A DNA stretch of 64,000 nt. Origin: Candidatus Poribacteria bacterium. Its GTDB lineage: Bacteria > Poribacteria > WGA-4E > WGA-3G. The stretch lies in the NCBI GenBank assembly GCA_965205025.1, contig CBDBFU010000023.1, positions 32,001-96,000 of the forward strand. The letters are read 5' to 3'. The first letter of the stretch is position 1, and every line of letters begins with the position of its first letter. The position numbers were made by a program, and so were the translations under genes. The notes below the pieces were generated by a model, which saw nothing but the letters and a program-made list of their open reading frames with translations, was not told the origin of the DNA and searched no databases. Below, piece by piece: positions 6,839-64,000 of this stretch.

Positions 6839-7651
6839 TTATTCATTTTTCCATCGTTTTACAGCATCCAATTTAGTTTGTTGCCAATCTGTCCAATCTT
6901 TTTTGCCTTCATATCTGACAACGTCATGTATTGTTGCACGTGGTTGATAAGTAATATAGTTCCCCGTATGCCATGCAAGATTCCTATAAATCATAAAGTC
7001 ACCGGGACCAAGGTGTACCTGTACAGCCCCAGGAAACTGTTGACAATGTTCCAAATTATAACGTTCGGCTTCCACATTTGACTGTCCTTCCTGCGGTTTT
7101 CGCAACTTCGGATCTTTTGTAGATTGTTCTTCTCCCGGCATATCCCATTGACGCAGATGACTTCCTGGTACAAACCATGTACAAGAATCAGAATAAATTG
7201 CACAATTTACCTGATTAAAGTGTCTTAGGTCATACCAGACTTCTGCTAACTTTGCCACGACCTGTTCATCTCTTGCTTCAAGAGGAACTTCAACAACACC
7301 ATCACGATGCCAACCAATATGCCATGGATGTTCCAAAGGTTCAACTAACAAACCCATTATATCTACATGACCATGCGTATAGTCATCTCCAAGCAAATTC
7401 TGTATAGCATCTTTAAGTTCAGGAAGTTCTGTATAATCGTAGAATGGTTTCAGGTTCAGTTCATCACCATAATTTGAGAGTGGTTGAATACGTTGGGTTT
7501 GAGGACCATTAAGTTTGTGTGCCAGGTGTCGTGCTTTTTCAGCTTCTATGCGTAAATCTGTGAGTAATGATGGAGGAACAATGCCTCGAAGTATTAAATA
7601 CCCTTGAGATAGATATTCATTCACCATATAGTTGTGAAATTTGAATGACAC
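6839..7651 (-). CDS. Phytanoyl-CoA dioxygenase (PhyH) family protein
   Basis: GYLILRG N-terminus, WHRD (HxD), FVPGSH, distal WH. Confidence 0.85.
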   Translation of the reverse strand: MSFKFHNYMVNEYLSQGYLILRGIVPPSLLTDLRIEAEKARHLAHKLNGPQTQRIQPLSNYGDELNLKPFYDYTELPELKDAIQNLLGDDYTHGHVDIMGLLVEPLEHPWHIGWHRDGVVEVPLEARDEQVVAKLAEVWYDLRHFNQVNCAIYSDSCTWFVPGSHLRQWDMPGEEQSTKDPKLRKPQEGQSNVEAERYNLEHCQQFPGAVQVHLGPGDFMIYRNLAWHTGNYITYQPRATIHDVVRYEGKKDWTDWQQTKLDAVKRWKNE

Positions 7652-7836: not shown

Positions 7837-7871
7837 GTGGAAACTATAATAGTTATAGAGTAAGCTTGTAT

Positions 7872-9323: not shown

Positions 9324-9358
9324 AAAAATGACTATCCTTTATTACCTCATTAACTAAT

Positions 9359-10234
9359 TTGGAGACAACAATGACTAATAGTCCAATTTTAAAAGGTGAA
9401 CCTTTCAGTGAAGAGAAGACTTTAGAAATTGCAGAACAATTCTTCAAAGAGGGATATGTCCATATCCCTGGTGTTCTCACCGATAATGAAGTTTCTGCAT
9501 TAAGAGATAAGTCAGATGAATTATTTGATGATCCAGAATTGATGGAGAGAACTAATCCTGAACTGGCAGATGTACGTTATATCCAGATGGGGAGTCATGC
9601 AGAATCAGGTAATACACTCCCATTCATACTTCGAAACACAATTGAGCTTGATCCGATATTTCGTGATATGCTTCTCCGTGAACCTATACTCAGTCTTGCA
9701 GAAGCCATTGTAGGGAAGAATTGCAAATTTTGTGGACAGAATGTACTTAGAAATCTCCCTGGTCTTTCAATCAGTACTTGGCATGTGGATGGATCTGTTC
9801 ATTTTCCAGTAACAGATGAGATGCCACAACATGATCCACGTTTAAGGATGCCTGTAATGTGGTTCACCGTTCAAATGGCGTTAAATGACATTGACACTAT
9901 AGAAGAGGGACCGACACAATATGTCCCAGGTAGTCATTTCTCAGGAAGAAATCCTAACGATCAAGAAAATCCAGAATTTAATGGAAATAAACCTGTATCC
10001 ATCTTCTGTAAAGCAGGGGATATTTATCTACAAGATCCACAGTGTTGGCATCGTGGTGCCCCCAATAATTCTGATAAAACACGTTATATCCTCCAATCAC
10101 AGTATGCAGCATATTGGGCATATTGGCGATTTAGTTTATGTAATGATGTACCTGTTTCGGAAGAAGAGCTAAAATCAGCAGATGATGAATTGTTACGTTT
10201 GTTGGGTCGAAGTAGACCAAATGGTTCAGATTGA
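9359..10234 (+). CDS. PhyH family dioxygenase
   Basis: GYVHIPGVL, WHVD, YVPGSH, WHRG. The true start may be ATG 9371. Confidence 0.85.
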   Translation: METTMTNSPILKGEPFSEEKTLEIAEQFFKEGYVHIPGVLTDNEVSALRDKSDELFDDPELMERTNPELADVRYIQMGSHAESGNTLPFILRNTIELDPIFRDMLLREPILSLAEAIVGKNCKFCGQNVLRNLPGLSISTWHVDGSVHFPVTDEMPQHDPRLRMPVMWFTVQMALNDIDTIEEGPTQYVPGSHFSGRNPNDQENPEFNGNKPVSIFCKAGDIYLQDPQCWHRGAPNNSDKTRYILQSQYAAYWAYWRFSLCNDVPVSEEELKSADDELLRLLGRSRPNGSD

Positions 10235-14474: not shown

Positions 14475-15389
14475 TTAACCGGTAGCATAATCATCAGGAT
14501 TGTTCTTACGCCAATTAGGCAGATATCCTTCTGTGTGTCCGAATCCATAAGAAGGTCCAATTTGGTTCACACTTGACCAGGGCCATGCCTGCCCTCCAAT
14601 TAAACGAAATTCATCACCTTTTCCACATAACCAATAGAACATATGTGCAACATATCTTGCTATACCATGTCCACCATATTCTGCTGTTTGAAAATCGAAA
14701 TCAGGTTCATGTATCCAATCACGATTTGGCTTCTCAGTTCGCCAATAACTGTATTTCAACATATGTCTTAATCCAGATGCTGTTGATTCACCACGACGAT
14801 GTAAAATACTTTGGGAGTGAATGACAAATGATCCAGCAGGTCCATCACTTGAGACACCTTTCTCAGTTATATCACGATGTGTTGGTGAAATATGTGATCC
14901 GGGTAATATCTCTGTCGGTCCCAATTCCATAGAAGTATCTTGTGGAAAATAAAACACTTCGACGAAGTTTGTTTCAGGACCAAATACGTGATCGGCATCG
15001 TGATGCCATTCTTGTGCAGGCATTGGACATTCTACACGGTGATTACTAACTAAAACTGGTAGACCAACATTATTACCAAGTAATGAACGTAATGCTCCAG
15101 CGAGTTCCTTATTCAGAAGCACATGCTCAATATACCAATCTTCAAGTAGAAGAGTACTGGGTTCGTGTGTATCTCTCATCCTTTCTAAATCAGCATGTGT
15201 CAATCCTTTTGGGATATAACAAGGATTTATAGGTAAATCACCGTTTAGATAATCAAAAGTACGTTGGTTAATCTCTTCTGGGACAACACCCTTTAATTGG
15301 AGAAAACCATCACGGCAATATTGGAGTACCTGTGAGTCGGTGAGTGTCGGTTGACAATCAAAAGTACGATTTGTTTTATCATATTTCAT
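14475..15389 (-). CDS. PhyH family dioxygenase
   Basis: DGFLQLKGV, WHHD, GPTEILPGSH, ILHR. Confidence 0.85.
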   Translation of the reverse strand: MKYDKTNRTFDCQPTLTDSQVLQYCRDGFLQLKGVVPEEINQRTFDYLNGDLPINPCYIPKGLTHADLERMRDTHEPSTLLLEDWYIEHVLLNKELAGALRSLLGNNVGLPVLVSNHRVECPMPAQEWHHDADHVFGPETNFVEVFYFPQDTSMELGPTEILPGSHISPTHRDITEKGVSSDGPAGSFVIHSQSILHRRGESTASGLRHMLKYSYWRTEKPNRDWIHEPDFDFQTAEYGGHGIARYVAHMFYWLCGKGDEFRLIGGQAWPWSSVNQIGPSYGFGHTEGYLPNWRKNNPDDYATG

Positions 15390-26914: not shown

Positions 26915-27417
26915 TTATCGTCTTATTAATTTAACCAATACTTGTGCAATATTACCTTTATAACCACAGCGAGTTGTATTAATTGGATAATCTTCTCCTC
27001 GAAATGTAATTCTTGATTTTTTTAGCTTGTCTCGTTGTACTCTGTGTAAGCTACCTCCATGTACTAAATAGGTACAAGGTCTATTTCAACTGTATTTGGA
27101 GTGTAGTGGTCTGCAATTCTTGCTCCAGTCTGTAATTGAAGTACTGCTTCAGATGCATCAACATCACCTCGTTTTAATTCCAAAGGGACACCAATTAGAC
27201 AATTCTTCACATCATCAATATGAAATAAGATGAAATCACATTGGTTGCTTCTCGCTTTGTCTGTGGGATAAGCTTTATCTACATCTAATACTACACGGTT
27301 TACAGGTTTAGACCTTAGATTAGCCATTGAAACGGTACATCCTTTTCTGGTATAGGATTTTGCATTACTGTTACCTACCCATTTCTTTATCTGATTAAGT
27401 GTATCAATTGGATTCAC
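26915..27417 (-). CDS. Small PD-(D/E)xK-like protein coupled to the AAA ATPase (1-nt frameshift near 27066)
   Basis: CDFILF...PLELKRG...QLQ motif. Adding one base at CCTATTTAGTA continues LVHGGSLHRVQ... to TAA at 26915. The start overlaps the ATPase stop. Confidence 0.6.
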
Positions 27418-28864
27418 TACGACTCTTGCCTTTCTTTCTCTCATATCGTTGTTGAAGATTTACAGTACGGTTGTATAGTCCTTCAGCAACATCCTCATAA
27501 TCCTGTGGGGAGATACCTTCTATAGATTTAAATGGTATCTCTTTCACTGTTTCGTTCTTTTGAAAATGCCATACGCCTACTTCTTCAGGCACTAACCAAC
27601 AATCAGATTTATCCGAATTTTCATCAATTAATCCTTCAAGAACAAGGTTTCCTATTTCCTGGAGCAACCAATCACTATGTGTTGTTGTTATAACTCTAAC
27701 ACCAGCTCTAACAAGATATGCGAGTATCACAGCCATGTCTGCTTGTGCACCTGGATGAAGATGAGCTTCTGGTTCTTCTATGATTAGTGTATCTCCAGGA
27801 TTAAGAATTCCTCTAATAAATAAAACAACTGGAGCTAATTCAATCACCATCGATGATGATTGGCTTAACGGTATGTCTTTTTCACTCTCATTAAAGGTAT
27901 ACCGTACATCAGGATTGCCACTAACAGATGATTTTAACTGGATTTTACCTTGTAGTATCTTGTTTTCTAATATTCCAGCAATATAATGCATATCACTGTC
28001 AATATTTTTGTTTTCTTCATATAGAATTATCTTAGCCAAGAAATCCGTTAGAACACTTGACATCGTAGGTATATTAGATAATTCTTCGACACCTATACGT
28101 GTAGTATGTCTAACCATAGAACTTGCAATCACTCTGTGACTTTGCATTAGACCACTACGTGCGCCAGGAAGATAATATCGACAATGTTTTCTTCCTTCAA
28201 TAGTAATTTCTGACTTGCCTTCATGTTCTGGTAAGATGATGGTTATAGCATGATTCTTAGGGATTAAAACCTGTTCATCACTTGATGAATAGGTCAAATC
28301 CAAATCAGATTCATCTGAACCTAAAGAATGCATACTTATATTCCAATATATTTTATTGTCTGACTCAATTTTTAACGAGATTGACATAGGATTATGTTGT
28401 TTTTTTAACACTCGATTAAGATTTGAAATTGAATCTAAATCAAAGCAATTTATGAGTTCTTCTTGTAAAGTCTTTTTAAAGGAATCTATAGTAAAATAAT
28501 TGTGTATACTTTCATGCATACTTTTTGGAAGATCCGATAATAAAAATGATCTGTCAATCATTGCCATTTTCCGTTGGATAATGTGCTTTTCTTCTTTTAA
28601 CAAATCTTGACCATTTAATAATTCTCTCAGTAAAGGTTCAAGACTACTTGGTTCAGAATTATAGATTAGATTTGGACCTGTAAAGTCGTTAAATACTCCA
28701 TGCAGAACATACATCAAGGTGGCAAGATATGTTTTTCCAGTATTACTCGGACCAACAAACACAGTCAAGGGACGCAGATCAATGTTGGCTTCGTGAATTG
28801 GTCCAAAATTTTTGACTTCAATACCTATCTTCAATTCTTGACTGGAGTCTTCTTTCTTACTCAT
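27404..28864 (-). CDS. ABC-type AAA ATPase (AAA_15/AAA_21, AbiEii-like)
   Basis: KNFGPI..LRPLTVFVGPSNTGKT (Walker A), SQSSSMVIELAP signature, IIEEPEAHLHP, TTHS. Confidence 0.88.
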   Translation of the reverse strand: MSKKEDSSQELKIGIEVKNFGPIHEANIDLRPLTVFVGPSNTGKTYLATLMYVLHGVFNDFTGPNLIYNSEPSSLEPLLRELLNGQDLLKEEKHIIQRKMAMIDRSFLLSDLPKSMHESIHNYFTIDSFKKTLQEELINCFDLDSISNLNRVLKKQHNPMSISLKIESDNKIYWNISMHSLGSDESDLDLTYSSSDEQVLIPKNHAITIILPEHEGKSEITIEGRKHCRYYLPGARSGLMQSHRVIASSMVRHTTRIGVEELSNIPTMSSVLTDFLAKIILYEENKNIDSDMHYIAGILENKILQGKIQLKSSVSGNPDVRYTFNESEKDIPLSQSSSMVIELAPVVLFIRGILNPGDTLIIEEPEAHLHPGAQADMAVILAYLVRAGVRVITTTHSDWLLQEIGNLVLEGLIDENSDKSDCWLVPEEVGVWHFQKNETVKEIPFKSIEGISPQDYEDVAEGLYNRTVNLQQRYERKKGKSRSESN

Positions 28865-28927: not shown

Positions 28928-30298
28928 TTAAAAAAATGTAAGATACGGTTTGCCTTCTATCTCGCGGAGCAACAATAGTGCAAGTTCTCTTCCATGATAG
29001 TCTCCCCACATAGATGCCTCTCCACATGGTATTTTTCTATCTTCTGGAACATAGTCCCACCCGTTGGGTCTGTGATATACTGAATGAAGAAGTAAACCTT
29101 GATGTGTTTCTGAGGCTGATAAATAGGGTTCATCAAAGAGAGTGTTTGCTACTGTTAAACCAGCTTGGTAGTATTTGGAACTTGATTCTTCTTCACCATG
29201 TTTTGAAAGGAAGTTCCCATATCTAATTAACCCTTGTGCCGCGATTGCTGCAGCAGAACTATCAACGGGTTCATAATCATTGTATGGTTCGGACGGAATT
29301 GATAGGTAATCTCCTAATTCAACCAGACCCGGAGCCCCTGTATCCCAGTAAGGTATTCCATCCTGTGCTGTGTTCTCAATGAAGAAATCTGCAGTTGCTT
29401 CAACTGCTTTCCTCATATGGGATGTCACTTCGAACTTCCCACCAAAAGAATCAAGGTCATCATCAGACAATGTATCAAAAAACTCAAGCTGCTCTGCATA
29501 ACCTGTTATAATCCATGCTAAACCACGAGTCCAGGTAGAAAATGGGGAATAACCTTGTTGTGTACTGGGACATCGGTAATTTCCATCATTAGTATTGAAG
29601 ATAGATTCATGAACTACCCGTCCCCGAATATCAAAAGCATCACGACCTTCACCGTAGTAAACATTATACTTAGCAGTTGTTTGAGAATGTTGGATTAACC
29701 GTTCCAATAAGTTTATTGCTACATCACCTTCACCCATAAGGACAGCCCCAAGTGTATGTCCTATAGCTAATACACGTAATGAACGTATGGTATCTGAGAA
29801 TAAAGAATGTGGTCCGTTGAAAGAAGCAATATAACCTGCTCCATCCTTAATCTCTGTCCATCGACTCGCTTGTACGGCTGCTGAAGATTTCAAAGCAATT
29901 TCATAAAAGTGCATTTCATTTTCATCAGTTGGGATAACACCTTCCCGCATAAGTCGACAAAGATTACCATAAGTGGAGACGTTATTAAACCCGTGATCAT
30001 GTACGCCAATATGTGTAACATGTGGATGCATTTTTTCAATAGTGTTCCGTCTTCCAATTTCTAAGAATTGTTCATCCCCAGTTGCATCATATTGAAGAAT
30101 AGCAGATCCAAATTGAAATCCTTGCGTCCATTCTGTCCATCCTCTGGTTGTGTATGTACCAGCAACTGTAAAAACAGGTGTGCCATTTTCTGGTAGCCAA
30201 GTGTCTTCAATTGACAATATTTTTTCACCTGAAAACTCAAAAAACCTGTCTATTTTGGTTTTCAGATCATGTATCTTTAATGAATTGTTTATCTTCAT
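28928..30298 (-). CDS. Glycoside hydrolase family 88 (unsaturated glucuronyl hydrolase-like)
   Basis: WTQGF, HDHGF, QGY..STWTRGLAW, PYWD, DSSAAAIAAQGL, WGDY. Confidence 0.85.
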   Translation of the reverse strand: MKINNSLKIHDLKTKIDRFFEFSGEKILSIEDTWLPENGTPVFTVAGTYTTRGWTEWTQGFQFGSAILQYDATGDEQFLEIGRRNTIEKMHPHVTHIGVHDHGFNNVSTYGNLCRLMREGVIPTDENEMHFYEIALKSSAAVQASRWTEIKDGAGYIASFNGPHSLFSDTIRSLRVLAIGHTLGAVLMGEGDVAINLLERLIQHSQTTAKYNVYYGEGRDAFDIRGRVVHESIFNTNDGNYRCPSTQQGYSPFSTWTRGLAWIITGYAEQLEFFDTLSDDDLDSFGGKFEVTSHMRKAVEATADFFIENTAQDGIPYWDTGAPGLVELGDYLSIPSEPYNDYEPVDSSAAAIAAQGLIRYGNFLSKHGEEESSSKYYQAGLTVANTLFDEPYLSASETHQGLLLHSVYHRPNGWDYVPEDRKIPCGEASMWGDYHGRELALLLLREIEGKPYLTFF

Positions 30299-46222: not shown

Positions 46223-47710
46223 TTAATTCCGTCTTCTCAGTGGATCAATTTGTGGAACATATCCTGGTGGGAGTCGGTCACTTGACGACCGTCCATCTTG
46301 GTAAAGTTGTTCAGCATCCGGATTTTCATTTTCATAAGGAGGCGTAAATTCGCGCCATTTATTACCATCAAGTGGTATATCATAACCATCCTCTTTGAAC
46401 CAGTTAATCAATCTGTTTCTATATTCATTTAATACACCACCATAGCCATGATTACCAGCAAGACTTCTATCATCAAGTTGTCCCGGTAATCGTCTAAACA
46501 ACCATTCCTTTCTATCAGCAGCAGAATATATGTATTTAAATTCATCAGTCATATACATATATACACCTCTATTCTGGTCTGCCAATTGTCCAATAATCCC
46601 CTCTCGCTCTACATGACCGCTTGCTATATCTGCTAAGTCAAGACCACTATGGTCAGATGAAGGAGTTAAACCAGCGGCACAAAGACTGGTGGGTAAAACA
46701 TCTACCAGACTTGTAGGTGTATCACACCGAATATTTGCTGAAAACCGTTGAGGATAACGAACCAACAGAGGTATTCTGGCAGCAGCATCAAGGAATGAAC
46801 GTTTACCATAGCAATCATAATCACCGAGTAATTCCCCATGATCAGAAGTATATATAATGAGTGTGTTATCAAGTTCATCCTCATCTTCAAGATATTCAAT
46901 TATTCGTCCAACTTGATAATCTATGAAAGAGATAGCAGCATAATATGCTGCACGCATTGTTCGTAACAAGTTCATATCTCGTCCTTGATCACGGTATTTA
47001 TATCGATTTTGATGACGATTCCAGTATGTATATAGATGTTCATAGTCCTCAGGTAGATATGGGAGTGGCATCTCAACAGGACGATATAGTCTATTCCAAG
47101 GGACAGGTGATTCAAACGGTGGATGCGGTTTGATAAAACTGCTCCAACATAGAAATGGTCTATCTGTATCTCTATCTGAAAGAAATTGTAGTGTTCTATC
47201 ACCAACCCATTGTGTATGATGGAGTCTTTCTGGAACTTGTGATTGTTGTGGTATATAGTAGTATTCGCTTCTTTCACCATGGGGTGCAACAATATGGTCA
47301 TAGCCATTTTCAACCAAAAACTCTGTATAATCGTCTGGTCCTGGTCCCTCTTCAGAAAAATCGCGTGTTTCATACCCCCACATTTTTTTTCGTTGTGGAG
47401 TAAAGTGCATTTTTCCGATTCCATGTGTTTGATATCCAACTTCATTGAGTAATTCCATTACGGATGGACGATCTTGTGGCATTGCGGAATTGGTTGTACA
47501 ACCAGTTTCGTGTGGCCATTGACCAAGTAGAAAACTACATCGAGAAGCCACACATACTGGTGAAGGACAATATGCGGATGTATAACTCGTTCCTTCACGT
47601 ACTATTCGATCAAGTGCAGGGGTTTGAATTATTGGATTACCAAGTGCTCTAATCGTATCAAAACGTTGTTGATCAGTCATCAGAAAAAGAATATTCGGTT
47701 GTTTTGCCAT
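46223..47710 (-). CDS. Sulfatase (Cys-type)
   Basis: PNILFLMTDQQR, CVASR, GKMH, PHPP, SDHGE. Confidence 0.92.
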   Translation of the reverse strand: MAKQPNILFLMTDQQRFDTIRALGNPIIQTPALDRIVREGTSYTSAYCPSPVCVASRCSFLLGQWPHETGCTTNSAMPQDRPSVMELLNEVGYQTHGIGKMHFTPQRKKMWGYETRDFSEEGPGPDDYTEFLVENGYDHIVAPHGERSEYYYIPQQSQVPERLHHTQWVGDRTLQFLSDRDTDRPFLCWSSFIKPHPPFESPVPWNRLYRPVEMPLPYLPEDYEHLYTYWNRHQNRYKYRDQGRDMNLLRTMRAAYYAAISFIDYQVGRIIEYLEDEDELDNTLIIYTSDHGELLGDYDCYGKRSFLDAAARIPLLVRYPQRFSANIRCDTPTSLVDVLPTSLCAAGLTPSSDHSGLDLADIASGHVEREGIIGQLADQNRGVYMYMTDEFKYIYSAADRKEWLFRRLPGQLDDRSLAGNHGYGGVLNEYRNRLINWFKEDGYDIPLDGNKWREFTPPYENENPDAEQLYQDGRSSSDRLPPGYVPQIDPLRRRN

Positions 47711-53289: not shown

Positions 53290-53679
53290 ATGGCAAAGGT
53301 AAAGGTTTTTTTGAGTTTTGAGTTTGATAAAGATAAAGAGCTTCAACCCAATTTTTACGCGCAAGCCAAGGATCACTCTTGTCATGAGATTGAAAATTAT
53401 TCGCTTAAAGAGACAAGTCGACCGAATGATAATAGTTGGTTGAGGAAAGCAGAGGAGCTGATTGCGCTTTCGGACATAGTGATTGTCGTTTTAGGGCAAG
53501 ATACGCATAATGCACCCGGTGTTAAAAAAGAGGTAACAATTGCTAATCAGTTGGAGAAACAGATGTTTCAGACTCGTCCGCAGAAAAGAACAAGCGGTGC
53601 TGTACCTGGTGCAGGTGATGAGATTACGTGGAACTGGAAGAAAATTGATGAGAATATTTCTGAGTGCTTGAAGAAATGA
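53290..53679 (+). CDS. MTH538/DUF1863 TIR-like protein (ThsB-like)
   Basis: KVFLSFEFDKD, SDIVIVVLGQDT..GVKKEVTIA with the putative catalytic Glu. AGGAG RBS. Confidence 0.8.
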   Translation: MAKVKVFLSFEFDKDKELQPNFYAQAKDHSCHEIENYSLKETSRPNDNSWLRKAEELIALSDIVIVVLGQDTHNAPGVKKEVTIANQLEKQMFQTRPQKRTSGAVPGAGDEITWNWKKIDENISECLKK

Positions 53680-53708: not shown

Positions 53709-54122
53709 TTATCCCACATCTTGTCCAATGAACTGCCAAAGCAAAACTATGCCGATAACAATTAGGATTGTAAGGTAAAAAGGTAAAAGTGTTTTAGAAA
53801 ATATGGATTTTATCCAATCCCATTTCTTCTTAAATGGAGTGGTGTTCATAGAGAAGTCTATTTTACCTTCATCTGTTTGTCTAACTGCATCGTATAACCT
53901 TCGGTACAACTGTTCTTGATTGAGATAGAAACCGTCTAATGCCCAAAAAGAAAGGGTTGGAATTGCTGCTAACCAAACATACATGGGTTTGGAATCTTTT
54001 GTAGCAAAACCTAACACAGCAGCAACGAATATAACCGTCCATCCTTTCAAGAAAAAAGAACTGTTTGCCAACCTGTTGATGACGTTCTGAATCATTTCTA
54101 AATGTTTTAGTGTTTTTTCCAT
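53709..54122 (-). CDS. 3-TM membrane protein (HLEMIQ..RLA.SSF.LKGW type), putative TIR-associated effector
   Basis: Three hydrophobic segments and LDGFYL..E.LYR.LY. Convergent with the TIR gene across a 29-bp gap. Confidence 0.7.
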   Translation of the reverse strand: MEKTLKHLEMIQNVINRLANSSFFLKGWTVIFVAAVLGFATKDSKPMYVWLAAIPTLSFWALDGFYLNQEQLYRRLYDAVRQTDEGKIDFSMNTTPFKKKWDWIKSIFSKTLLPFYLTILIVIGIVLLWQFIGQDVG

Positions 54123-54382: not shown

Positions 54383-55495
54383 TTAGCGTTTAAGTTTCGC
54401 CCGTCCATCATCGAGTATTTCAACTTCAACTAATTCAAGTTGTTTTTCTGAGAAAAACTCTTTTATATCTTCAGTAAGTTGTTCTATTGGTTCTGGTTCA
54501 ACTATATTCATCAATTCTTTCCCAACTGAAGATAGCAGGATCCCAGGCATTTTGAAATCCCAGTCCGGTTTATCTTTATCATTATGAGATTTTAGCAAAA
54601 AGTATTTATTTGCATATAAAAATGGGGCCGATGGTTTTTCAATATTTCCTATGAAACTATCTTTTAGGTTGAGTGAAAATCCACTATAGAAATGGCCCGG
54701 GTCAACCGCGGCTGATAGCAGCGAGAATTCTTGTAGATTATTTAACATCAATTGGCTTAATCCGTAATTTTCAAGAAAATTGTTACTGTCCATAGGTTGA
54801 AATTTTGGAAAAATTGAAGTATAGATTATACCAGAACCACGTGGGTTATCGAATGAAACGCACCCAGAACAGAAAATCCTAAATATTGATGCAGTCTCTG
54901 AATCTATTTCACCTAATAGTTTTATAGCACGTGTTGAAAAAGTTCCGGGGTTCATAATTTCGCCTGCGATAACTCGTGCAAAGCGTTCTTGCATTTCTTT
55001 GGAGCTTTTCTGACAGGCTTCTTTCTCAAAAATGTTAAACCAATCATCACTTATTGTCTTTTCCGATTCATTATCACCTTCTTGATTTGCTGAATTATTG
55101 TACTTCTTTCGTTTAAGTATATCCGTAGCAAAACCCATGATTTTCTCAAGATTGAACTGCTCTCTCAGTATCCTTTTTGCAAATGTGTTACTCGCTCTCT
55201 GTGAAAATTCTGGGTCAACCTTTATTTGTTGGAGGATTTGGGCGTTAACCTCCTCTCCAATTTTAATCCGTGCTTCCGATTCTGCCCGTTTTTCGGCAGA
55301 CCTCCGCTCAAGAGCTCCAACCGGTACATCAATTAAAGCAGAGCACAACCTGTCTAAAGCCTTAAACATATTACGCCTAATTGGAGCAGGAATAGTTGAA
55401 TCTGATATAAGGTCGGTAACAACGTCCAAAGTAGTATTTGTTTCATCTTCGGAAGTTGAATCTGGTGGAGTCAGTAAATCTTGCTCTTTATTCAT
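54383..55495 (-). CDS. DUF2806-type protein
   Basis: ISDDWFNIFEKEA..SSKEMQERFARVIAGEI..PGTFS motif. ATG 55495 preceded by GAGG. Confidence 0.75.
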   Translation of the reverse strand: MNKEQDLLTPPDSTSEDETNTTLDVVTDLISDSTIPAPIRRNMFKALDRLCSALIDVPVGALERRSAEKRAESEARIKIGEEVNAQILQQIKVDPEFSQRASNTFAKRILREQFNLEKIMGFATDILKRKKYNNSANQEGDNESEKTISDDWFNIFEKEACQKSSKEMQERFARVIAGEIMNPGTFSTRAIKLLGEIDSETASIFRIFCSGCVSFDNPRGSGIIYTSIFPKFQPMDSNNFLENYGLSQLMLNNLQEFSLLSAAVDPGHFYSGFSLNLKDSFIGNIEKPSAPFLYANKYFLLKSHNDKDKPDWDFKMPGILLSSVGKELMNIVEPEPIEQLTEDIKEFFSEKQLELVEVEILDDGRAKLKR

Positions 55496-56842
55496 AATTA
55501 TTTTCCTCAAATGATAAAGTGATACTTCAAGTATGGAGTTGTCTGGTGAACTTTCTATCATTCCGTAACAACCGTTTCCTCTCCAAGCATGTCAATAATT
55601 TTCACAGCGACTTGTGCATCAGCGCAGGGCAGCGATATAGTGTAATTTCCCTCAACAAAATCGGTCTTTTTCTTTGGAACATCACTCTCAACGATTGTGA
55701 AATGTACTCCCGTATAGTCGGTATCAATTAACACACAATCAATCTGTGCGCGGAAGTCGTCAATTTGTTCGTCAAAGATAGTTCGGTCTATGTCCATGCG
55801 TGCTAAGATGGTTGGACTGATATAGTCTTCTATGGTGATTGTGATGTTTTCTCCGTCCCTTTCGAATTTAACATCTGCTTCGGCGGGGACGTAGGTGGTG
55901 ACACCGTCGCGTTGAATATCACGGACAATGAATTTGTTGATGGGACGTTGTCGGTTTTCCTTTACAAGTTCTTCTTGGATTCCAATTTCACTGCCGTTGC
56001 AAAGGACTGTGATGTCGCGCGTCTCATCTGGTCGGTTTTTGAGTTCGTTCTTGATAGTTTGAATATCTAAAGGGGTGAGGGGTTTATTTAGGTCAATGAT
56101 TTTGACAAGTGTTCCGTCTAATGTGCCGTCAAAAAAAGCAGCATTGCGATCAATTTCTACACCGTATTTTGCAGTGACAATGGTTTTGAGTTCATGTTCG
56201 ACTTGAAAGTCGTAGTTATTGACGCGATAGTGTGCAATTCCTCGTGATTTGTCATTGCCATTCTGCATACGTTTTATTGTTGTTTGAATTGCTCCTCTGT
56301 TGAGATCTGCAGCGATCCAGCGTCTACCAAGTTTTTCTGCTACGGCTGCTGTTGTTCCGCTTCCGATAAAACAATCCAGAACGATGGAATCTTCATTACT
56401 CGATGCGTTGATGACACGTTCAAGGAGTGCTTCCGGTTTTTGAGTAGGGTAATCAACTCGTTCTTTTGATTGTGAATTGATAATTGATATTTCAAAAACA
56501 TCATCAGGTAATTTGCCAAGTGGGTTTACTTTGACGACTTTACCAAAAGATTTGACACCTGCTTTAGCTTGTTTAAGAGTTCCCTCTGAATATGGCACTC
56601 GAACTTTATCTACGTTAAAGATATAATCTGCAGTTTTTGCGTAAAAGAGGAGAATGTCGTGTTTTCGTCGGAAACTACGTGTTGTTCCACCCGATGGGTC
56701 TTTATACCACCAAACAATCTCATTTACGAACTTATCTTCACCGAATATTTCGTCTAACAATAAACGGAGGTGGTGACTTTTATGCCAGTCGCAGTGAAGA
56801 TATAAGCTCCCTTTTTCACTTAATAGTTCACGCATTAAACTA

Positions 56843-57747
56843 TAGTGACTATCAGAATTAAAGAGACATTTTTTGTATTTTGTAGTAGAATGTGTCTATT
56901 ATGGCATATTCAACAGATTTACGCAAACGCGTTTTAGATTTTATTGAAGCTGGCGGGAAAAAAGCCGAAGCTGCCCGTCGTTTTTCTCTGAATCGTTCAA
57001 CGATTTATAGATGGTTAGCCGCTGAAGACCCGCTTTCGACCCAAAAACCGGGGCCCAAAAGCATGAGAGTGCTTGACGAGGCAGCACTGAAAAAACATGT
57101 CGCTGATTTCCCAGACTTGACGCAAAACGAACGCGCCTCACATTTCGGTGTTTCAGAGTCTTCTATAGCCTATGGGTTGCGGAAACTCGGCATCACACGA
57201 AAAAAAAACAATCGGATATAAGGAGCGGTGCGATGAGAAACGGAGGGGCTACCGTCAGACACTCACCGAGAAACACGCCGCTGGTAAAAAGATAGTTTAT
57301 GTTGATGAATGCGGTTTTCGTGCTGAAAGTTATAGGCGTCATGGCTATGCCCCGAAAGGTGAATGTGTCTTAGGTTTGATCTCAGGCACAAGAACACGAA
57401 CAACGACGCTGGTCGCAGCGCGTATCGGTTCGACTTTTACGGCACCTTGTTTGTTTGATGGAAGCTGCGATTCTGCGTGTTTCAATGCGTGGCTTGAAGC
57501 CTATTTATGTCCACGGCTGTCTGTCTCAGACGTGGTTGTTCTTGATAATGCGAAGATCCACAAGACGCTTCGGACGCGTGAGTTGATAGAAGCATCGGGA
57601 GCAGAGGTATTGTTTTTACCACCTTATTCACCGGACTACAACCCGATTGAACACGACTTTGCGAATATCAAACGTCTCAGAGAATACAATGCTGATATAA
57701 CCATTGATGAAGTTATAAACATGTATCATTAATTCTAAAGTTTACTA
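56843..57747 (+). mobile_element. IS630-family insertion sequence (905 bp), TA target duplication
   Basis: TA at 56841-56842 and 57748-57749. Imperfect 19-bp terminal inverted repeats TAGTGACTATCAGAATTAA / TTAATTCTAAAGTTTACTA. Confidence 0.92.
56901..57732 (+). CDS. IS630 transposase (HTH ORF + DDE ORF, joined at an A9 run)
   Basis: MAYSTDLRKRV HTH; YVDECG, VLDNAKIH, LPPYSPDYNPIE. Frame change at A9 (57200-57208). Confidence 0.92.
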
Positions 57748-58257
57748 TAAGTCGCTCAAACATAAACTGAAGGTAGTTATCATTTGTCCAGATATCCATG
57801 TATTGTACTTTCTCAATATTTGAGTGTTCTTCCCCTTCCAATGACACCTTTGCACCTCGTAACTCTACCTTTCTAACATAATCTGCTCCGCTGGCGAACG
57901 GTGGATCTATATAAATAAGGTCTATTTTACCTCGAAAACCATGCGCGAGGAGTGTTGAAAGGATTTCTTTGTTGTCACCGTGAAATAGGAGGTTGGGACC
58001 ATCTTTAAAGTTGTCGTAAGACGGTTCTTTTTCTGGGTTTTCAACGTTATAGGAGTCTACCAATTGGGCGGGATAGGCGTTGACTGTGTCTATTGGTCGT
58101 TTGCCGACCCAGTGGAGCATGGGTCTGCCTTTAACTGACTTGATTTTCATTGTGTTTTCCTTTCGTATCGAAGTTTAGCAACTGCACGTTCTACATCTTG
58201 TTGGAATAAAACTACGGAATAAAGCAGTAATGTTTGGTTCCGTGTTCCTGGCAGTAG

Positions 58258-59745
58258 TTAGTTTTGCTCTTGATTTTTCCTAATTTGTAGGTTTAACAAT
58301 GCCTCATTGAGATTAGCATGTGCTGTAGTATAATTAGGATCAAGTTGTATAGCTTTTTTATAGTCTTGAATCGCTTGTTCAAAATCACCTTTGCTATTGT
58401 GAGCAAAACCCCGATTGTTATATGCAATAGCGTAATCTGAATTGAGTTCTATCGCTTTATTATAGTTTTCAATAGCACGATCAATTTCACCTTTTTTGTG
58501 GTAAGCATTGCCGCGATTGCTATAAGCTTCTACCAAATTGGGACCAAAGTGTGTTGCCATGTCAAAGTCTTGGATGGCACGGTCTATCTCGCCTTTGACA
58601 TCGTAAGAAAGTCCCCGATTGTTATACGCACCAGCATCGTTTGGCTTCAATTGTATTGCTATATCAAAGTCTTGAATGGCGCGGTCAATTTCACCTTTTT
58701 TGTGGTAAGCATTGCCGCGATTATTATAGGCCTCGGCAAGGTTTGGCATTAACTGTATTGCGATGTTGCAGTCTTCAATAGCACGCTCATATTCACCTTT
58801 GTTTTTGTAAGAAGTACTTCGGTTGCTATATGCTTCAGCATAATCTGGGTTGAGTTCTATCGCTTTGGTAAAGTCTTTGATAGCTTTGTCAGACTCACCC
58901 TTTTCCTCGTAAGCATTGCCACGGTTGTTATAAGCTTCCCAGAAGGATAGCTTCGATTGTATTGCTTTGGTATAATGTTTAATGGCCTCTTCATATTCCA
59001 TTCTATTGTCACAAACTAAACCTTTATAAAAGTATGTATAAGAATCCCCATGAAGATCCTGGTTTCTGATAAATCCATGCAGATCGTTATAGATGGTTTC
59101 CTTAGATATACCGTGATACTTCCGCAAATGCTGTAGCATCGCCTGTTTGAGGTATGCTGGAATAGTGACTACATCGTCCTCTTGTGGTTCAATAAAGCCT
59201 CTGGGATGTCTAACAAATACACTCTTCTGGGCAATTACACGGTGTCTTGGATTCTTAGGATGCTTGATCCAATTTTTAATTAGATCGGTCTTTTGTAGGA
59301 TAACCCGACCATCTTCATTGGGGGAACCGTCGCAGGCAAAGAAAAGTGCGATGAAGTAGTCGGTGGCAAAGTCTATAAGGTTTGTTTTACCCTCGTAGTG
59401 TTGGATATCAGTGAGAATTTCAAAATCAATGGTTTCATCAGTATCCTGTCCGGGCATACCTGGGGATGCTGTGTAATCCATAGGGTAATCCTGAGGTAAT
59501 TGTCCTATGTGTTTCTTAGCAGCATTAAGGAGTTCTTTTTGGATAACCTCTATATCAAAATGTTCGTTGTCAATACAGTATTCGCGCCAAAGGTTTGAAG
59601 AAACTTTTCCACAATATGGGTGTTCGTTATGAAGTTTACGTTCACCGCGATAAATATAACTGCCATCTGCAGATTTTGCCTCTATTGCGCTGATAATGTC
59701 TCGAATTGTAAGGGGCGGTTTTTCTTCTTTAGGTTGAGTTGACAT
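58258..59745 (-). CDS. FRG domain + TPR repeat protein
   Basis: YIYRGE, IQHYEGKTNLIDF..ALFFAC, RVIAQKSVF, then about 7 TPRs (AYNNRGNAY..KGE.D.AI.DF..AI.L.P). Confidence 0.88.
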   Translation of the reverse strand: MSTQPKEEKPPLTIRDIISAIEAKSADGSYIYRGERKLHNEHPYCGKVSSNLWREYCIDNEHFDIEVIQKELLNAAKKHIGQLPQDYPMDYTASPGMPGQDTDETIDFEILTDIQHYEGKTNLIDFATDYFIALFFACDGSPNEDGRVILQKTDLIKNWIKHPKNPRHRVIAQKSVFVRHPRGFIEPQEDDVVTIPAYLKQAMLQHLRKYHGISKETIYNDLHGFIRNQDLHGDSYTYFYKGLVCDNRMEYEEAIKHYTKAIQSKLSFWEAYNNRGNAYEEKGESDKAIKDFTKAIELNPDYAEAYSNRSTSYKNKGEYERAIEDCNIAIQLMPNLAEAYNNRGNAYHKKGEIDRAIQDFDIAIQLKPNDAGAYNNRGLSYDVKGEIDRAIQDFDMATHFGPNLVEAYSNRGNAYHKKGEIDRAIENYNKAIELNSDYAIAYNNRGFAHNSKGDFEQAIQDYKKAIQLDPNYTTAHANLNEALLNLQIRKNQEQN

Positions 59746-59807
59746 GCTTATTTTTCACTCCATATACTTTTAGGTTTATCAGAGAAAGCAGGATTCTAGA
59801 ATCATTC

Positions 59808-62468
59808 CTACGAGAGTGTTACATTCGTTTTATCGTTGCGGATCCACGCGAGGACATTATCAATTTCGTCAAGGTTCTCTCTCAGAAAATCAGTATTGGT
59901 ATAGATGATGTGATATTTGAAACGGTCATTGGATTGCATCTTTTCTAAACGTTCAACCGCTTTCTTTTTTGCTTTGACTGTCTCATTATTACGGTCTCTT
60001 TCAGATTTTATCTCAACGATGTAGAATTCACCCGTCTTTTTTACAATCACAAAATCAGGAAAATAGCGGTGAAAGTTACCGTCTTCACCTTTATATTCAA
60101 AATGGAAATCACTCTTTTTAGTATCTGTCAAACCACCTGTAAATAGAAATATGTCCACATCTTCCATTGCAGTATTCAGGGAACTCAGGATTGCTTCAAA
60201 AAATTCACGTTCTGGTTTGGTATCAAAATTGTAGGGCATATAGTGGAAACTTATACTGTGATCGTCCGGTAAATCTTCCTCACTGAATAGAAGTCTGTCG
60301 TTTTTCATCCGTTCAGCTGTCCGTTTTTGGACACGTAATCTGTGGATGTAGTTGCCGTTTGCGTCTTGTTCAAAAAGAGGGTTTCCGTTAGTGTCGTGTG
60401 TATGAATAAGGGCAAGTACCTCTTTGATTTCTTCTTTGATCACTTTGTAGTTTTGTATTTTGGTTTCGACTTGTTGAAACAACGGATATATGTGTGCGTT
60501 TGGGACTTCACCATTCGGATAGAGTTTATTTATACTCTTGAGTGTATTCATCACTGGTAGATGATAGTTTGTTGCAATCCTTCGAGCAATCGTATAACAA
60601 TCTGTTGTGTGATCAGAGACTTCAATATTATCACTTTCCCCAGTGTCTATAAATGGTGAGGTTGTTCCGCGGTTGGTAAAATTGGGTGTTAATATTCTGC
60701 GGACAATTGGTGGTGGTTCTTCTACATCGGTAGGAAGTTCCAACTGAATCTCCGTAGGTGTACGTTCCTTTCGGACGACACGGGATACCTTTCGAGTAAT
60801 TTCAAGTTTTGGCAATTCTGCTTTGAGAATGCGGATTTCGACATCCTCCGTATCAGCCGTGTGTCCGCTAAGTCTGCCAAGAGTTGTACCAAAGTTCTCC
60901 TCTAATTCTTTGTCTAATATGTATCTGTTCTTTGTATCCAAGAAAATTTTAGCAGGATATGTATTGCCTTCCACTTGACGGAGGCATCGGGTAGAGGCTT
61001 GCAGAACAAAGTTGCTACTTGTTGTCTGTTCCTTAATCAGTGCACAAGCGAATAAACTGGGACAATTCCATCCCTCTACACCTTTTCCGATGAGCAATAA
61101 GATACGTTTTTGATTGTCTGGATCGTTAAGACTGTTGAATTCGTCAATTTCGGCTTGATTGGATTTTTGTGTATTGACGAGTATTAAGGTGGAATTCTGA
61201 CCTATTTCTGCTAATGCCTTTTCAATATATGTTCTTGATATGTCGAGATGTTCTTGAGTCTTAAAATAGAAGGCGATTTTAGCTTTTGCACCGTTAGGTA
61301 GGGTTACGTCGCTGTAGTTTTGAAAAAATACTTCTATAACGTTCTGGATGACTTCTTCCTCAGAACCATCTCCAATATGGTAGTGAACAATGCCTTTGTG
61401 TAGACTCTTAAGGATGTTATCCTCTATTCCTTCACCGAGGCTATACCATGCAACGACTTCACGGAGCACCTGTCTTTTATAGTACGGTGTACCGGTAGTG
61501 TTGACAACTGCAATCAAGTCGGTTTTTTCATCTATATAGTTGACGGTTTCCCGTACCCGTTTGAGTTCGCTGTCCATTTTGTTTCCGTATGTATGGTGTG
61601 CTTCGTCTGAGAAGACTCCTAAACTGGGTAGACTTGTGATTTTTTGAAGTCGTAGATTCGCTTCTAATTCTGCCTGTTCTTTCTTTTTCTCAAAGTCTAA
61701 CAGTGATTGACTTTTACGTTGTTTCAAGTTTGCTCTCAGACTTATTTTCTCGGTATTCGTAACAATGACATTGTAAGTACTCTCAGGTTGTACTTGAATG
61801 TCTTTTGCACCAGTTTGTGGATAGGTGATTTTGAGATTTGCCAGAAAATCACGGTGTAGACTGAAGGGTAGAATTTGCTCAAAAGGGATATCGCTTATTT
61901 CACGTAGACTTTCAATGATAGTCGTGCCAGGGGCGAATACCAGGGCATTTTTCATGAAATTGGCTTCAGGATAGCGGAGTGCCATAGCGAATTCAGTTGC
62001 AATAATAGTACCGATCAGAACCGTTTTACCTGTCCCCATTGCAAGCGCGAAGATATAACTTGGATACGGAAGGGTTACCGCTTCATGAACGGGATTGAGT
62101 TGGTTTTCCTTAACGTATTCCGGATCGTTTTTTATTTTCTGAAGTACCATGTCAACATTCTGGATCCACTGTAGCTGATTTGGGTCAATTGGAATACCGA
62201 TTGCTTCAAAAAAATCTCTTTTATCAGGATAATAGTGTTTATAGAGTTCGACAATATGCGGGGTGTTTCGGACGAGTCTTAAGAACCAATAGAGTTCCAG
62301 AGATTGAAATTGCGGTTCACGGAGGTATTTGAGTATGATGTTTTCTTCAACTTCACCTTCAAATTGGTAACCTAATATTTCTCCGATGAGAGGGTAATCT
62401 TGGCAGGGGTATCCTTCTTTTCGCCAATTTAGTGTGTCTTCACGTAGATTTTCAAAAAGGTGCTGCAT
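59808..62468 (-). CDS. res: Type III restriction endonuclease Res subunit
   Basis: MGTGKT, DEAHH, TTGTP, EGWNCP, QASTRCLR, C-terminal YFPDF..VEIKS nuclease motif. Confidence 0.88.
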   Translation of the reverse strand: MQHLFENLREDTLNWRKEGYPCQDYPLIGEILGYQFEGEVEENIILKYLREPQFQSLELYWFLRLVRNTPHIVELYKHYYPDKRDFFEAIGIPIDPNQLQWIQNVDMVLQKIKNDPEYVKENQLNPVHEAVTLPYPSYIFALAMGTGKTVLIGTIIATEFAMALRYPEANFMKNALVFAPGTTIIESLREISDIPFEQILPFSLHRDFLANLKITYPQTGAKDIQVQPESTYNVIVTNTEKISLRANLKQRKSQSLLDFEKKKEQAELEANLRLQKITSLPSLGVFSDEAHHTYGNKMDSELKRVRETVNYIDEKTDLIAVVNTTGTPYYKRQVLREVVAWYSLGEGIEDNILKSLHKGIVHYHIGDGSEEEVIQNVIEVFFQNYSDVTLPNGAKAKIAFYFKTQEHLDISRTYIEKALAEIGQNSTLILVNTQKSNQAEIDEFNSLNDPDNQKRILLLIGKGVEGWNCPSLFACALIKEQTTSSNFVLQASTRCLRQVEGNTYPAKIFLDTKNRYILDKELEENFGTTLGRLSGHTADTEDVEIRILKAELPKLEITRKVSRVVRKERTPTEIQLELPTDVEEPPPIVRRILTPNFTNRGTTSPFIDTGESDNIEVSDHTTDCYTIARRIATNYHLPVMNTLKSINKLYPNGEVPNAHIYPLFQQVETKIQNYKVIKEEIKEVLALIHTHDTNGNPLFEQDANGNYIHRLRVQKRTAERMKNDRLLFSEEDLPDDHSISFHYMPYNFDTKPEREFFEAILSSLNTAMEDVDIFLFTGGLTDTKKSDFHFEYKGEDGNFHRYFPDFVIVKKTGEFYIVEIKSERDRNNETVKAKKKAVERLEKMQSNDRFKYHIIYTNTDFLRENLDEIDNVLAWIRNDKTNVTLS

Positions 62469-62523
62469 TTATGCGTGTTCCTAAAAGTTGTAAGCAAAGT
62501 AGTTGGTTTAGTGTCCGTTATTT

Positions 62524-63635
62524 CTAAGTTCCACCAGCAGAATCGGAATTGAGTTCACGAAGGGCATTCTCAATTATCTCTATATATTTTTCATTATTAT
62601 TTTGTTTTGCTAATTGTAATCCTGTTTGGTAATCTTGCCTTGCTTCGATCTTGAGACAAAGACAGGATTTGGCATAACCTCGAATTTCGTAGACATTTGG
62701 ATTAGGATTCCCTAACCTAATAACTTCATCAAAGTCTTCAATTGCTTCTTGATATTGTTGTATGTTGACTCTTGCGTGTCCACGCCAGAAATACGGATTT
62801 GCATCTTTTGGATGCCAGTTAATTGCCTTAGTATAGTGCAAAATGGCTTCCTCATATTCCTGACTTTGATAAGCATGGTGTCCAAGGTTTATGTAGTCAG
62901 GATTGGGGAAAGGCATGTTGTGCCCATGCTGACTTGCGAAACCTTCAAGATCTGGAAATAGTGTCTTTCCAGTAATATTTGAACAACTCTCCAGAGATTT
63001 CAAGATATTTTCTTTACTTCCTGCTTCTATAATGCATTCTTTATCTGGATAAATAACTTGATTTCCTCCCAGCAGGAAAACAGAATGTTGTGAAGAAATT
63101 CTATTGTTCAGATGTCTCGGTTGCCATCGATAGAGTTGAGGCTGCCATAGTTTACTACTTGGGGCGTTGAAATAGGATTCAAGACTTCTTTGTTCTAACA
63201 TTAGGGGTGTTATTTCTTCAATTTTGTGTGGAGTATTTAGGATTGCACCAACTTTACCGTTTGATGGCATACCACTACTTGGCTGACAGGCGAACCAAAG
63301 GGCAACTTGGGCACTATAGGTAAAGTCAATCAAACAAGTTGCTGCGCGAAAATGCTGGAGTTCAGCAAGTATTTCTAAATCGGTAAGTTTCGTCCATTTT
63401 TGTAATCGTGTCCCTGAAGACGTGCTTCTTTGATTAGAATCTTGTTGATTTCAAGAAATTCATCGTAACTACTTCTGTTATATGTACTTGGGAAACGACG
63501 CCAAGCGGACGCTTCTATTTGGTACGCATCATTTGACAAACCCCGAAATAAATATAATTCGGATTCTAAATTGGGATTTATAGATTGTACCCATTTTATG
63601 AAATCCTTCAGAGTCTTGATCTGGGTTGCATTCAT
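62524..63635 (-). CDS. FRG domain + TPR protein (1-nt frameshift near 63380)
   Basis: YLFRGL in the 5' ORF. Adding one base at AACTTACCGATTTAG continues ..DLEILAELQHFRAATCLIDFT..ALWFAC..RISSQHSVF and about 3 TPRs (~370 aa). Confidence 0.82.
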
Positions 63636-64000
63636 ATAGTTTTCCTTATCTGGTTACAATTTCTAATTTATAATGTTTCATTATCATTTCTGAAGAAAAC
63701 CCCTAAATCCTCTTATCAGTGGGATGTCTGATCTCTAACTTACAGTGGATTCAAATAGAAATGGTATTATTCAACGTCTTTGAAATTATATCATGCTTGG
63801 GTAAAAACGGCAAAGAAAGTCGGATGGAATTGGTTATGAGAAGTATGAAAATTTCGTTGATGTTGTTTGGTATAAGGGTGTGACCTATGAATGATAATAT
63901 TAGGTAGGTTAATGCCGATAAGAGTATGTATCAAGGACAATTGTTTAGCATTTTTTGATACGTGTTAGTTAAATCCACATAGACGTCAATTTCGTGCAAT

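Follow-up and report, generated by a model that had tools for sequence, protein, structure and literature searches.

FRG-TPR genes as probable autonomous abortive-infection modules in restriction-modification operons of Poribacteria

We analysed a run of defence-type genes at positions 54383-63635 of a 64-kb stretch of contig CBDBFU010000023.1 from Candidatus Poribacteria (GCA_965205025.1); this whole stretch is called the window, and coordinates given without a locus number refer to it. The genes follow one another on the minus strand in the order FRG-TPR#1 > res > FRG-TPR#2 > mod > DUF2806, with the two genes of a type III-like restriction-modification (R-M) system interleaved with two genes that encode an FRG domain followed by tetratricopeptide repeats (TPRs). 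We favor, with moderate confidence, the interpretation that FRG-TPR genes are autonomous abortive-infection modules that habitually hitch-hike in R-M operons. The region would then be the terminal part of a defence island in a sponge-symbiont-like Poribacteria genome, with the type III-like operon (res ... mod) as its backbone and three self-contained genes of the abortive-infection type, two FRG-TPR lineages and the DUF2806 gene, lodged in it and probably co-transcribed. Such an operon could provide two layers of immunity, restriction first and NAD-linked abortive infection second. In the second layer, the TPR array may bind a phage-derived protein and so switch on the N-terminal FRG domain, a predicted divergent enzyme of the ADP-ribosyltransferase (ART) fold that would destroy NAD+ or ADP-ribosylate a target, whereupon the infected cell would stop growing. 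The FRG-TPR modules would be independent of the particular R-M enzyme in the window. The known kind to which the locus belongs is defence-island or R-M-linked back-up immunity, of which FRG-TPR and TIR-TPR genes in R-M operon tails are a variant.

The association with R-M genes is recurrent. Species-representative genomes were scanned with an alignment of FRG domains (A1), which replaced a single-sequence scan because the window peptides deviate from the family consensus; the scan of these genomes with a single FRG domain had found no relative. The alignment gave 162 pattern matches, 37 of them confirmed by tblastn, in 36 loci (L001-L036) that represent one FRG subfamily and are titled Poribacteria (32), 'uncultured bacterium' (2), Nitrospirales (1) and Methylophagaceae (1). 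The Methylophagaceae locus (L036) was dropped as a match of 34 residues, leaving 35 loci to be counted. Neighbors were typed from open reading frame (ORF) maps of 20-kb loci, with Pfam searches on 59 proteins or segments and PADLOC searches on 17.

An R-M enzyme is encoded upstream of FRG-TPR, on the same strand, in 26 of the 35 loci, and the genes between the two are co-oriented throughout in every one of the 26. Three classes of enzyme are represented. Most (23) are type IIG-like proteins of ~1200 aa with Eco57I, TaqI_C and N6_Mtase domains (the L005 protein matches REase_MTase_IIG in PADLOC at 5.5e-106), preceded in nine loci by an HKD-Snf2 helicase-nuclease; two are type ISP (L035 and L018, the latter with the complete set of five ISP domains), and one, in L002, is type III-like. 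The first gene after the R-M stop codon lies a median of 108 nt downstream and overlaps the 3' end of the R-M gene in 9/26 loci; the overlap is 4 nt in seven of these, and in the other two it measures 29 and 38 nt of the called ORFs. Directly behind the enzyme, 17 of the 26 loci encode an FRG-TPR protein and four a TIR-TPR protein; two to three FRG-TPR paralogues are present in 10 loci, and TIR-TPR genes in 7. Three further loci (L028, L029, L034) have R-M parts close by, methyltransferase or Res genes, that were not counted, and six (L001, L007, L013, L025, L026, L027) are without an R-M gene. Since FRG-TPR and TIR-TPR modules follow type IIG-like, type ISP or type III-like enzymes or stand alone, the tails of R-M operons appear to be their preferred docking and co-expression site. 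One locus from outside the Poribacteria titles, L030 (Nitrospirales), contains a whole cassette of type IIG > TIR-TPR > FRG-TPR > FRG-TPR.

The sequence-only reading of the window had named homologues scattered independently of R-M loci, in an order peculiar to one genome, as the outcome that would count against a composite system; we found instead the recurrent linkage described above and an order shared with L002, which reads res > FRG-TPR > TIR-TPR > orf191 > mod. The L002 FRG domain is 72% identical to that of the window, and its TIR-TPR protein combines TIR_2 (1.8e-10) with 12 TPRs; the locus has no counterpart of FRG-TPR#1 upstream and no DUF2806 gene downstream. Among the 36 loci, tblastn found a homologue of the window Res in L002 only. 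Mod likewise has its homologue in L002, and L028 and L029 gave weaker methyltransferase matches. These comparisons bear on the possibility that the genes clustered by chance in an R-M-rich genome, their order being an accident of insertion and decay. Two of the five window genes are broken, an insertion sequence (IS) element is present, the DUF2806 linkage is unique to the window (0/36 loci), and the R-M counts are raw, all of which suit such an accident. Against this, L002 has the same order, 26/35 loci are strictly polar and co-oriented, and the rest of the 20-kb loci rarely contains ORFs with an R-M label (L033, with a helicase 6 kb downstream, and L029 are the only cases); we consider chance clustering improbable.

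Several observations suggest that the modules are not bound to one R-M partner. In a maximum-likelihood tree of 44 FRG domains, FRG-TPR#2 of the window is sister (support 99/97) to its closest relative, the stand-alone gene of L001 (77% identical), which is flanked by genes for a H+-pyrophosphatase and a dihydroxy-acid dehydratase on one side and by fatty-acid genes on the other. The labels type III, type ISP and 'none' are scattered in this tree among the type IIG rows (2, 2 and 5 changes), and two plasmid FRG genes outside the surveyed lineage have no R-M neighbor. Other defence genes occupy the same runs. A fused PARIS-like AriAB gene lies directly behind the R-M gene in L022 and L023, the position held by FRG-TPR or TIR-TPR in 21/26 loci; a third AriAB-like gene, in L025, precedes FRG-TPR in a locus without an R-M gene. 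PADLOC AriAB-like matches in the runs score 6e-37 and 6e-61. L020 contains a complete Pycsar pair (8196-9827; PycTIR 3e-108, PycC 5e-101) between TIR-TPR and FRG-TPR, further down a run headed by a type IIG-like enzyme, and in L003 a NucC-like nuclease gene directly follows the R-M gene.

PrrC, with the type Ic enzyme EcoprrI, and PARIS, with Ocr, are abortive-infection back-ups of restriction, and FRG-TPR resembles both as an abortive-type effector gene inside or beside an R-M operon. PrrC is an anticodon nuclease tied to one R-M family; FRG-TPR, in contrast, has a predicted ART-like domain and lies behind three R-M classes or none, its linkage to R-M genes being consistent without extending to a single cognate family. 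The sequence-only reading had proposed that the two FRG-TPR proteins guard the type III Res/Mod complex in the manner of PrrC, with two specificities. A guard specific to Res or Mod is unlikely, because the same FRG clade is spread over three unrelated R-M classes and stands alone in 6/35 loci; the placement of its nearest relative (L001) among housekeeping genes and the self-contained PARIS-like and Pycsar systems in the runs likewise speak against it. A looser coupling, for example through the sensing of generic anti-restriction factors, is possible.

Within the window, seven ORFs correspond to five genes, named by Pfam, NCBIfam and PADLOC profile searches together with motifs read in the translations. 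ORF calls and family matches bear out the earlier description of one co-oriented minus-strand run with short spacers, which measure 55 nt (FRG-TPR#1/res), 62 nt (res/FRG-TPR#2), 107 nt (FRG-TPR#2/mod) and -4 nt (mod/DUF2806). Of the five, FRG-TPR#1 is disrupted by a 1-base frameshift and mod by an IS630 insertion. The features are as follows.

63785..63813, minus strand: promoter-like site upstream of FRG-TPR#1, a possible operon start (TTGCCG-17-TATAAT with TG; consensus scan)
63375..63635, minus strand: N-terminal piece of FRG-TPR#1, 86 aa, with the LYLFRGL motif and the frame lost at the 3' end (PDC-S15, 4.6e-6)
62524..63393, minus strand: C-terminal piece of FRG-TPR#1 in another frame (ORF 62524-63333, 269 aa), with the rest of FRG and ~3 TPRs
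59808..62468, minus strand: res, intact, a type III-like helicase-nuclease of 886 aa (ResIII, 1.4e-6)
58258..59745, minus strand: FRG-TPR#2, intact, 495 aa, with FRG at ~residues 1-235 followed by 7 TPRs
57749..58150, minus strand: 5' part of mod, with the DPPF motif (ORF 57713-58150, 145 aa, extending into IS sequence; MTase_III, 9.7e-21)
56843..57747, plus strand: IS630-family element within mod, ~905 bp (HTH_Tnp_IS630, 4.7e-27; DDE_3, 1.8e-31)
55558..56841, minus strand: 3' part of mod, with FIGSGTT and a 230-aa C-terminal extension (ORF 55558-56835, 425 aa; N6_N4_Mtase, 5.4e-43)
54383..55561, minus strand: DUF2806 protein, 392 aa (Pfam DUF2806, 4.4e-18), its start overlapping the mod stop by 4 nt

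The consensus scan found promoter-like sites in this region in a number not above the shuffled expectation; therefore the TTGCCG-17-TATAAT site is a mere lead.

FRG-TPR#2 matches Pfam FRG (8.8e-9; 36.6 bits, cut-off 25) and contains seven TPR stretches (Pfam TPR_1, 4e-68). In FRG-TPR#1, both pieces match the PADLOC family PDC-S15 (N-terminal 4.6e-6, C-terminal 5.2e-14) and ~3 TPRs are recognized (TPR_2, 7e-13). Its C-terminal piece reaches only 17.6 bits for Pfam FRG (cut-off 25); the gene is 41% identical to L005:14684-15931, which itself scores 63.6 bits. A shift of one base, next to five consecutive A and around 63375-63400, breaks the frame; the two pieces line up one after the other along one uninterrupted ORF in each of L004, L005 and L017 (tblastn), the N-terminal piece being 44-48% identical to the N-terminus of those intact genes. 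As the sequence-only reading had stated, both proteins keep the FRG/YRG, QH..T.LIDF..AL.FA and R..Q.SVF motifs, in the forms YIYRGE, IQHYEGKTNLIDFATDYFIALFFAC and RVIAQKSVFV in FRG-TPR#2 and LYLFRGL, LQHFRAATCLIDFTYSAQVALWFAC and RISSQHSVFL in FRG-TPR#1, and they carry different TPR arrays (7 versus ~3). They are 31% identical over 231 aligned residues (1e-19), and because their mutual identity is just 31% we regard them as old paralogues; a recent duplication was rejected on the same figure.

Relatives of the FRG domain of FRG-TPR#2 are numerous: a word-indexed protein search returned 2752 at E<=1e-3, and the representative library has 1514; the best 120 of the 2752 are 63-94% identical, nearly all TPR-fused and 273-758 aa long. 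A protein atlas search with the window FRG sequence re-found the FRG clusters and nothing further. As to a sensor role of the repeats, the Pfam model TPR-S lies under its cut-off of 27.6 in the window FRG-TPR#2 (20.9 bits) and above it in the FRG-TPR (32.9 bits) and TIR-TPR (38 bits) proteins of L002. The TIR-TPR proteins, like other effector-repeat sensors, are similar to FRG-TPR in joining a predicted N-terminal NAD-linked effector to a C-terminal TPR array, and they alternate with FRG-TPR in 7 loci; FRG-TPR differs from effector-repeat sensors in having FRG in place of TIR and in joining effector to repeats without an intervening NTPase (STAND) module.

The surveyed loci also contain variants of this architecture. 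The FRG domain and the TPR array are encoded as two ORFs in L010:3375-5038, L027:9977-12887, L029:9977-12479 and L009:13902-15384 (overlapping by 4-8 nt), in L006:12520-14043 (3 nt apart) and from L008:16120 onward (adjacent), which suggests natural two-gene versions of the module. In L007 (11971-14442; 4e-11) and L013 (12535-14952; 7e-12), Peptidase_M10 (matrixin)-TPR proteins adjoin FRG-TPR; here the TPR scaffold bears a third type of effector.

The sequence-only reading had also proposed that FRG is ADP-ribosyltransferase-like. This agrees with a published assignment, weakly echoed by our fold search: in the text of PMC9503650 available to us, which cites Burroughs & Aravind 2020, Frg is counted among the ART superfamily, with a predicted role as antiviral effector and perhaps as NADase. 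We modeled residues 1-235 of FRG-TPR#2 with AlphaFold2; an alignment of 26 close sequences gave a model of pLDDT 37.4, which was discarded for one from 146 diverse sequences (pLDDT 91.5, pTM 0.86). Across these 146 sequences the near-invariant residues are R33-G34-E35, S50, R54, Q115-H116, N122, D125, R147, R169 and Q173-K174-S175. Comparison of the model with ART folds, which the sequence-only reading had called for, came out divided: every one of the best 12 Foldseek matches in the PDB is an ART (cholera toxin A1, CARDS, PltA, Rhs TreX/TreTu, typhoid toxin, Arr), yet a match at E<=1e-3 was obtained neither in the PDB (best 0.31, TM 0.22-0.35) nor in BFVD (best 0.042). The fold search is thus coherent with the published ART assignment and is no proof of it.

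PADLOC lists the family as a defence candidate, PDC-S15, matched by FRG-TPR#2 at 4e-14 and by FRG-TPR#1 at 5e-14; the 'S' we take to denote a single-gene candidate in PADLOC naming. The window genes share the profile and the motifs of PDC-S15/FRG (PF08867, which Aravind and colleagues assign to the ART superfamily), and the published antiviral prediction fits their defence context; they differ in that FRG is here fused to long, variable TPR arrays and embedded in R-M operons. Our literature search found no anti-phage test of FRG or PDC-S15 and met predictions only, in the accessible text of PMC9503650. Kaur et al. (2020, 2021, eLife) make no mention of Frg. For FRG-TPR or TIR-TPR genes in R-M operon tails we found no prior description, and Burroughs & Aravind 2020 may already report an R-M linkage.

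An interpretation of another kind is that the TPR proteins are eukaryote-like repeat proteins that manipulate the sponge host, in which case their proximity to R-M genes would be incidental. Poribacterial TPR proteins are discussed in such terms in the part of PMC3909097 available to us, and the window contains genes typical of symbionts of this kind, for an LRR-WD40 protein, sulfatases and PhyH proteins. At their N-termini, however, the TPR proteins carry FRG or TIR, both classed as immune effectors; the neighbors are R-M, PARIS-like, Pycsar and NucC-like genes; and the family is a PADLOC defence candidate. On this evidence we regard host manipulation as very improbable.

A rival interpretation is a true composite system, in which FRG-TPR and TIR-TPR proteins would be back-up effectors coupled to R-M that fire when restriction is defeated, for instance on sensing an anti-restriction protein or an R-M enzyme that has stalled or is inhibited, as in PrrC or PARIS. 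The R-M enzyme lies upstream in the same run in 26/35 loci, with 3'-end overlaps in nine; occurrence behind three R-M classes is what would be expected of a generic anti-restriction sensor; PARIS-like AriAB directly follows the R-M gene in L022 and L023; and the Nitrospirales cassette of L030 suggests transfer as a unit. A further hint of coupling comes from TaqI_C-like tails on effector-TPR proteins, two with TIR (L004:11630-14608 and L008:11580-14447) and one with FRG (L032:9953-12613), which resemble TaqI_C and MmeI_TRD. L004 and L008 have tails that are 88% identical, and the TIR and FRG versions share 57%; identity to the target recognition domain (TRD) of the adjacent type IIG-like enzyme is only 24-30%. 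An origin as a recent copy of the neighboring TRD was rejected on this difference (24-30% to the neighbor versus 57% mutually). We nonetheless consider a true composite possible but doubtful: six loci stand alone, among them the window's nearest relative (L001), the want of a conserved partner class makes a specific protein-protein guard of Res or Mod unlikely, and FRG-TPR#2 of the window is still intact although mod has been destroyed. A bolder formulation, which we offer as speculation, is that FRG-TPR and TIR-TPR might form an undescribed class of R-M-coupled, NAD-linked back-up effectors, with two-layer operons over three R-M types and an effector-TPR-TaqI_C sub-class that would wire the reading of a DNA motif to a suicide enzyme of the NADase type.

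Several points weigh against the autonomous-module interpretation. Linkage in 26/35 loci, always upstream and co-oriented and with nine overlaps, exceeds what is usual in a loose island and fits functional coupling equally, and the tails on the L004, L008 and L032 proteins hint at a mechanistic connection with the recognition of DNA. Nor are the loci independent: the orthologous pairs L011/L014, L015/L016, L022/L023 and L005/L017 are among them, and the title Poribacteria applies to 32 of the 36; 26/35 is a raw count, uncorrected for the genome-wide frequency of R-M genes; and distal flanks were labelled only for homologues of the query set. The fold matches to ARTs, finally, fall short of significance. 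We still favor autonomous modules that dock in R-M operons.

In type III systems, Mod marks self DNA and recruits Res, which cuts unmarked DNA. The translation of the window Res shows GTGKT, DEAH and PD...EIK (PDF...EIK), indicating an SF2 helicase with a C-terminal PD-(D/E)xK nuclease; Pfam assigns residues 137-315 to ResIII (1.4e-6) and, weakly, residues 790-840 to a TnsA-like nuclease (1.2e-3). It scores 57.7 bits (5.4e-16) against the NCBIfam BPTD_3080 restriction endonuclease, below the cut-off of 800, and matches no PADLOC family at E<=0.01, including the REase_III models; the Res of L029, by contrast, matches REase_III at 2e-226. A sequence search of the PDB likewise gave no match. We label the protein 'type III-like' because it does not match the curated type III endonuclease profiles. 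Its closest homologue in the survey is L002:587-3253 (79% identical), and the best match among plasmids, 40% identical over 99% of Res, is an Ideonella gene. A gene for a site-specific DNA methyltransferase lies 36 nt behind the Ideonella gene, and AAA and DUF4276 genes and Mrr come next. On a Yoonia plasmid, homologues of mod and res overlap. Because res and mod homologues are directly adjacent on these plasmids, FRG-TPR#2 is best seen as an insertion into a normally contiguous pair, which supports the earlier remark that the second FRG-TPR gene sits between genes that are normally neighbors.

Mod is a beta-class N6/N4 methyltransferase with motif IV (DPPF, in the 5' piece) ahead of motif I (FIGSGTT, in the 3' piece), and MTase_II (5e-47) and MTase_III (1e-44) score equally well on its 3' part in PADLOC. 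The 5' part is 76-78% identical to the intact mod of L002 up to ...FMFERL, and the 3' part is 57% identical to it (482 alignment columns spanning all 425 residues); L002 mod reads straight across the insertion point of the window, with the restored reading ...ERL|SLM... The IS630 element is flanked by a TA duplication and has imperfect terminal repeats (12/17), with the ends read by eye; an inverted-repeat finder reported none there at its thresholds. Its transposase occupies two plus-strand frames that overlap (56892-57221 and 57172-57732) and span an A9 run. Near another FRG-TPR locus, at L035:1661-2499, lies a gene for an IS630 transposase that shares 60-63% identity with this one. Compared with an EcoP15I-like type III system, the window has a Res with SF2 and PD-(D/E)xK modules and a beta-class Mod with DPPF before FxGxG; it differs in that res and mod are separated by another gene and not both intact, mod being inactivated, and in that Res matches neither PADLOC REase_III nor, by sequence, any structure. 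Because mod is split by IS630, and Res without Mod cannot find DNA, the R-M function of this operon is off. With mod split, Res deprived of its targeting partner and FRG-TPR#1 frameshifted, the arrangement is in decay.

Methyltransferase genes of three surveyed loci have a small conserved ORF just upstream (L002:7210-7785, L005:5615-6034, L006:4960-5316), in type III-like and type IIG-like loci alike; this ORF, which gives a weak antidote/HTH-like match (9e-4), may encode a controller protein.

The last gene of the run encodes a nearly full-length DUF2806 domain (66.4 bits, cut-off 24.5; 219 of 221 profile positions covered) without a PADLOC match. According to the portion of a preprint that was available (bioRxiv 10.1101/2024.07.02.601686), Belisama is a validated single-gene DUF2806 defence system of Vibrio cholerae integron cassettes that causes strong culture lysis upon infection and is toxic if over-expressed. 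The likeness of the window protein to Belisama is at the domain level only, with no direct sequence comparison, and the gene differs in being translationally coupled to mod. Relatives are present on ~300 enterobacterial conjugative plasmids, and the nearest plasmid relative, from Acaryochloris, stands alone. The suggestion that DUF2806 belongs to a composite system fares poorly, given this solitary relative and the result of tblastn, which found no homologue in any of the 36 FRG loci.

The run is bordered by further defence-like genes. Just downstream of the DUF2806 gene, a 137-aa protein (53709-54122, minus strand) matches PADLOC PDC-M50A at 2.4e-47; no PDC-M50 partner of it was identified, and tblastn found no homologue in the 36 loci. 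Convergent with it is a gene for a 129-aa ThsB-like TIR protein (53290-53679, plus strand; Pfam 2.1e-7), and below 51.4 kb, toward lower coordinates, the genes are of the housekeeping type. A second defence-like spot contains an AAA_15 ATPase (27404-28864, minus strand) that resembles PD-T4-4_A (1e-33) and AriA (7e-28); the flanking genes on the same strand, 28928-30298 (456 aa) and 27064-27444 (126 aa), have no family match. The window also encodes a leucine-rich repeat (LRR)-WD40 'eukaryote-like' protein (1-1989, minus strand), sulfatases (7866-9323, plus strand; 46223-47710, minus strand) and three PhyH proteins (6839-7651, 9359-10234, 14475-15389), gene content described for Poribacteria in the part of PMC3909097 that was available.

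R-M is the commonest bacterial defence, and to our knowledge few abortive back-ups tied to it have been described (PrrC, PARIS). Should co-expression with R-M enzymes prove systematic for effector-TPR genes, layered immunity of this modular kind would be widespread, the uncharacterized FRG domain would gain a testable role, and part of the TPR repertoire that has been counted among the 'eukaryote-like proteins' of sponge symbionts would be immune hardware rather than machinery for interaction with the host. Even on a conservative view, the tails of R-M operons offer a defined place to search uncultured symbionts for new defence genes.

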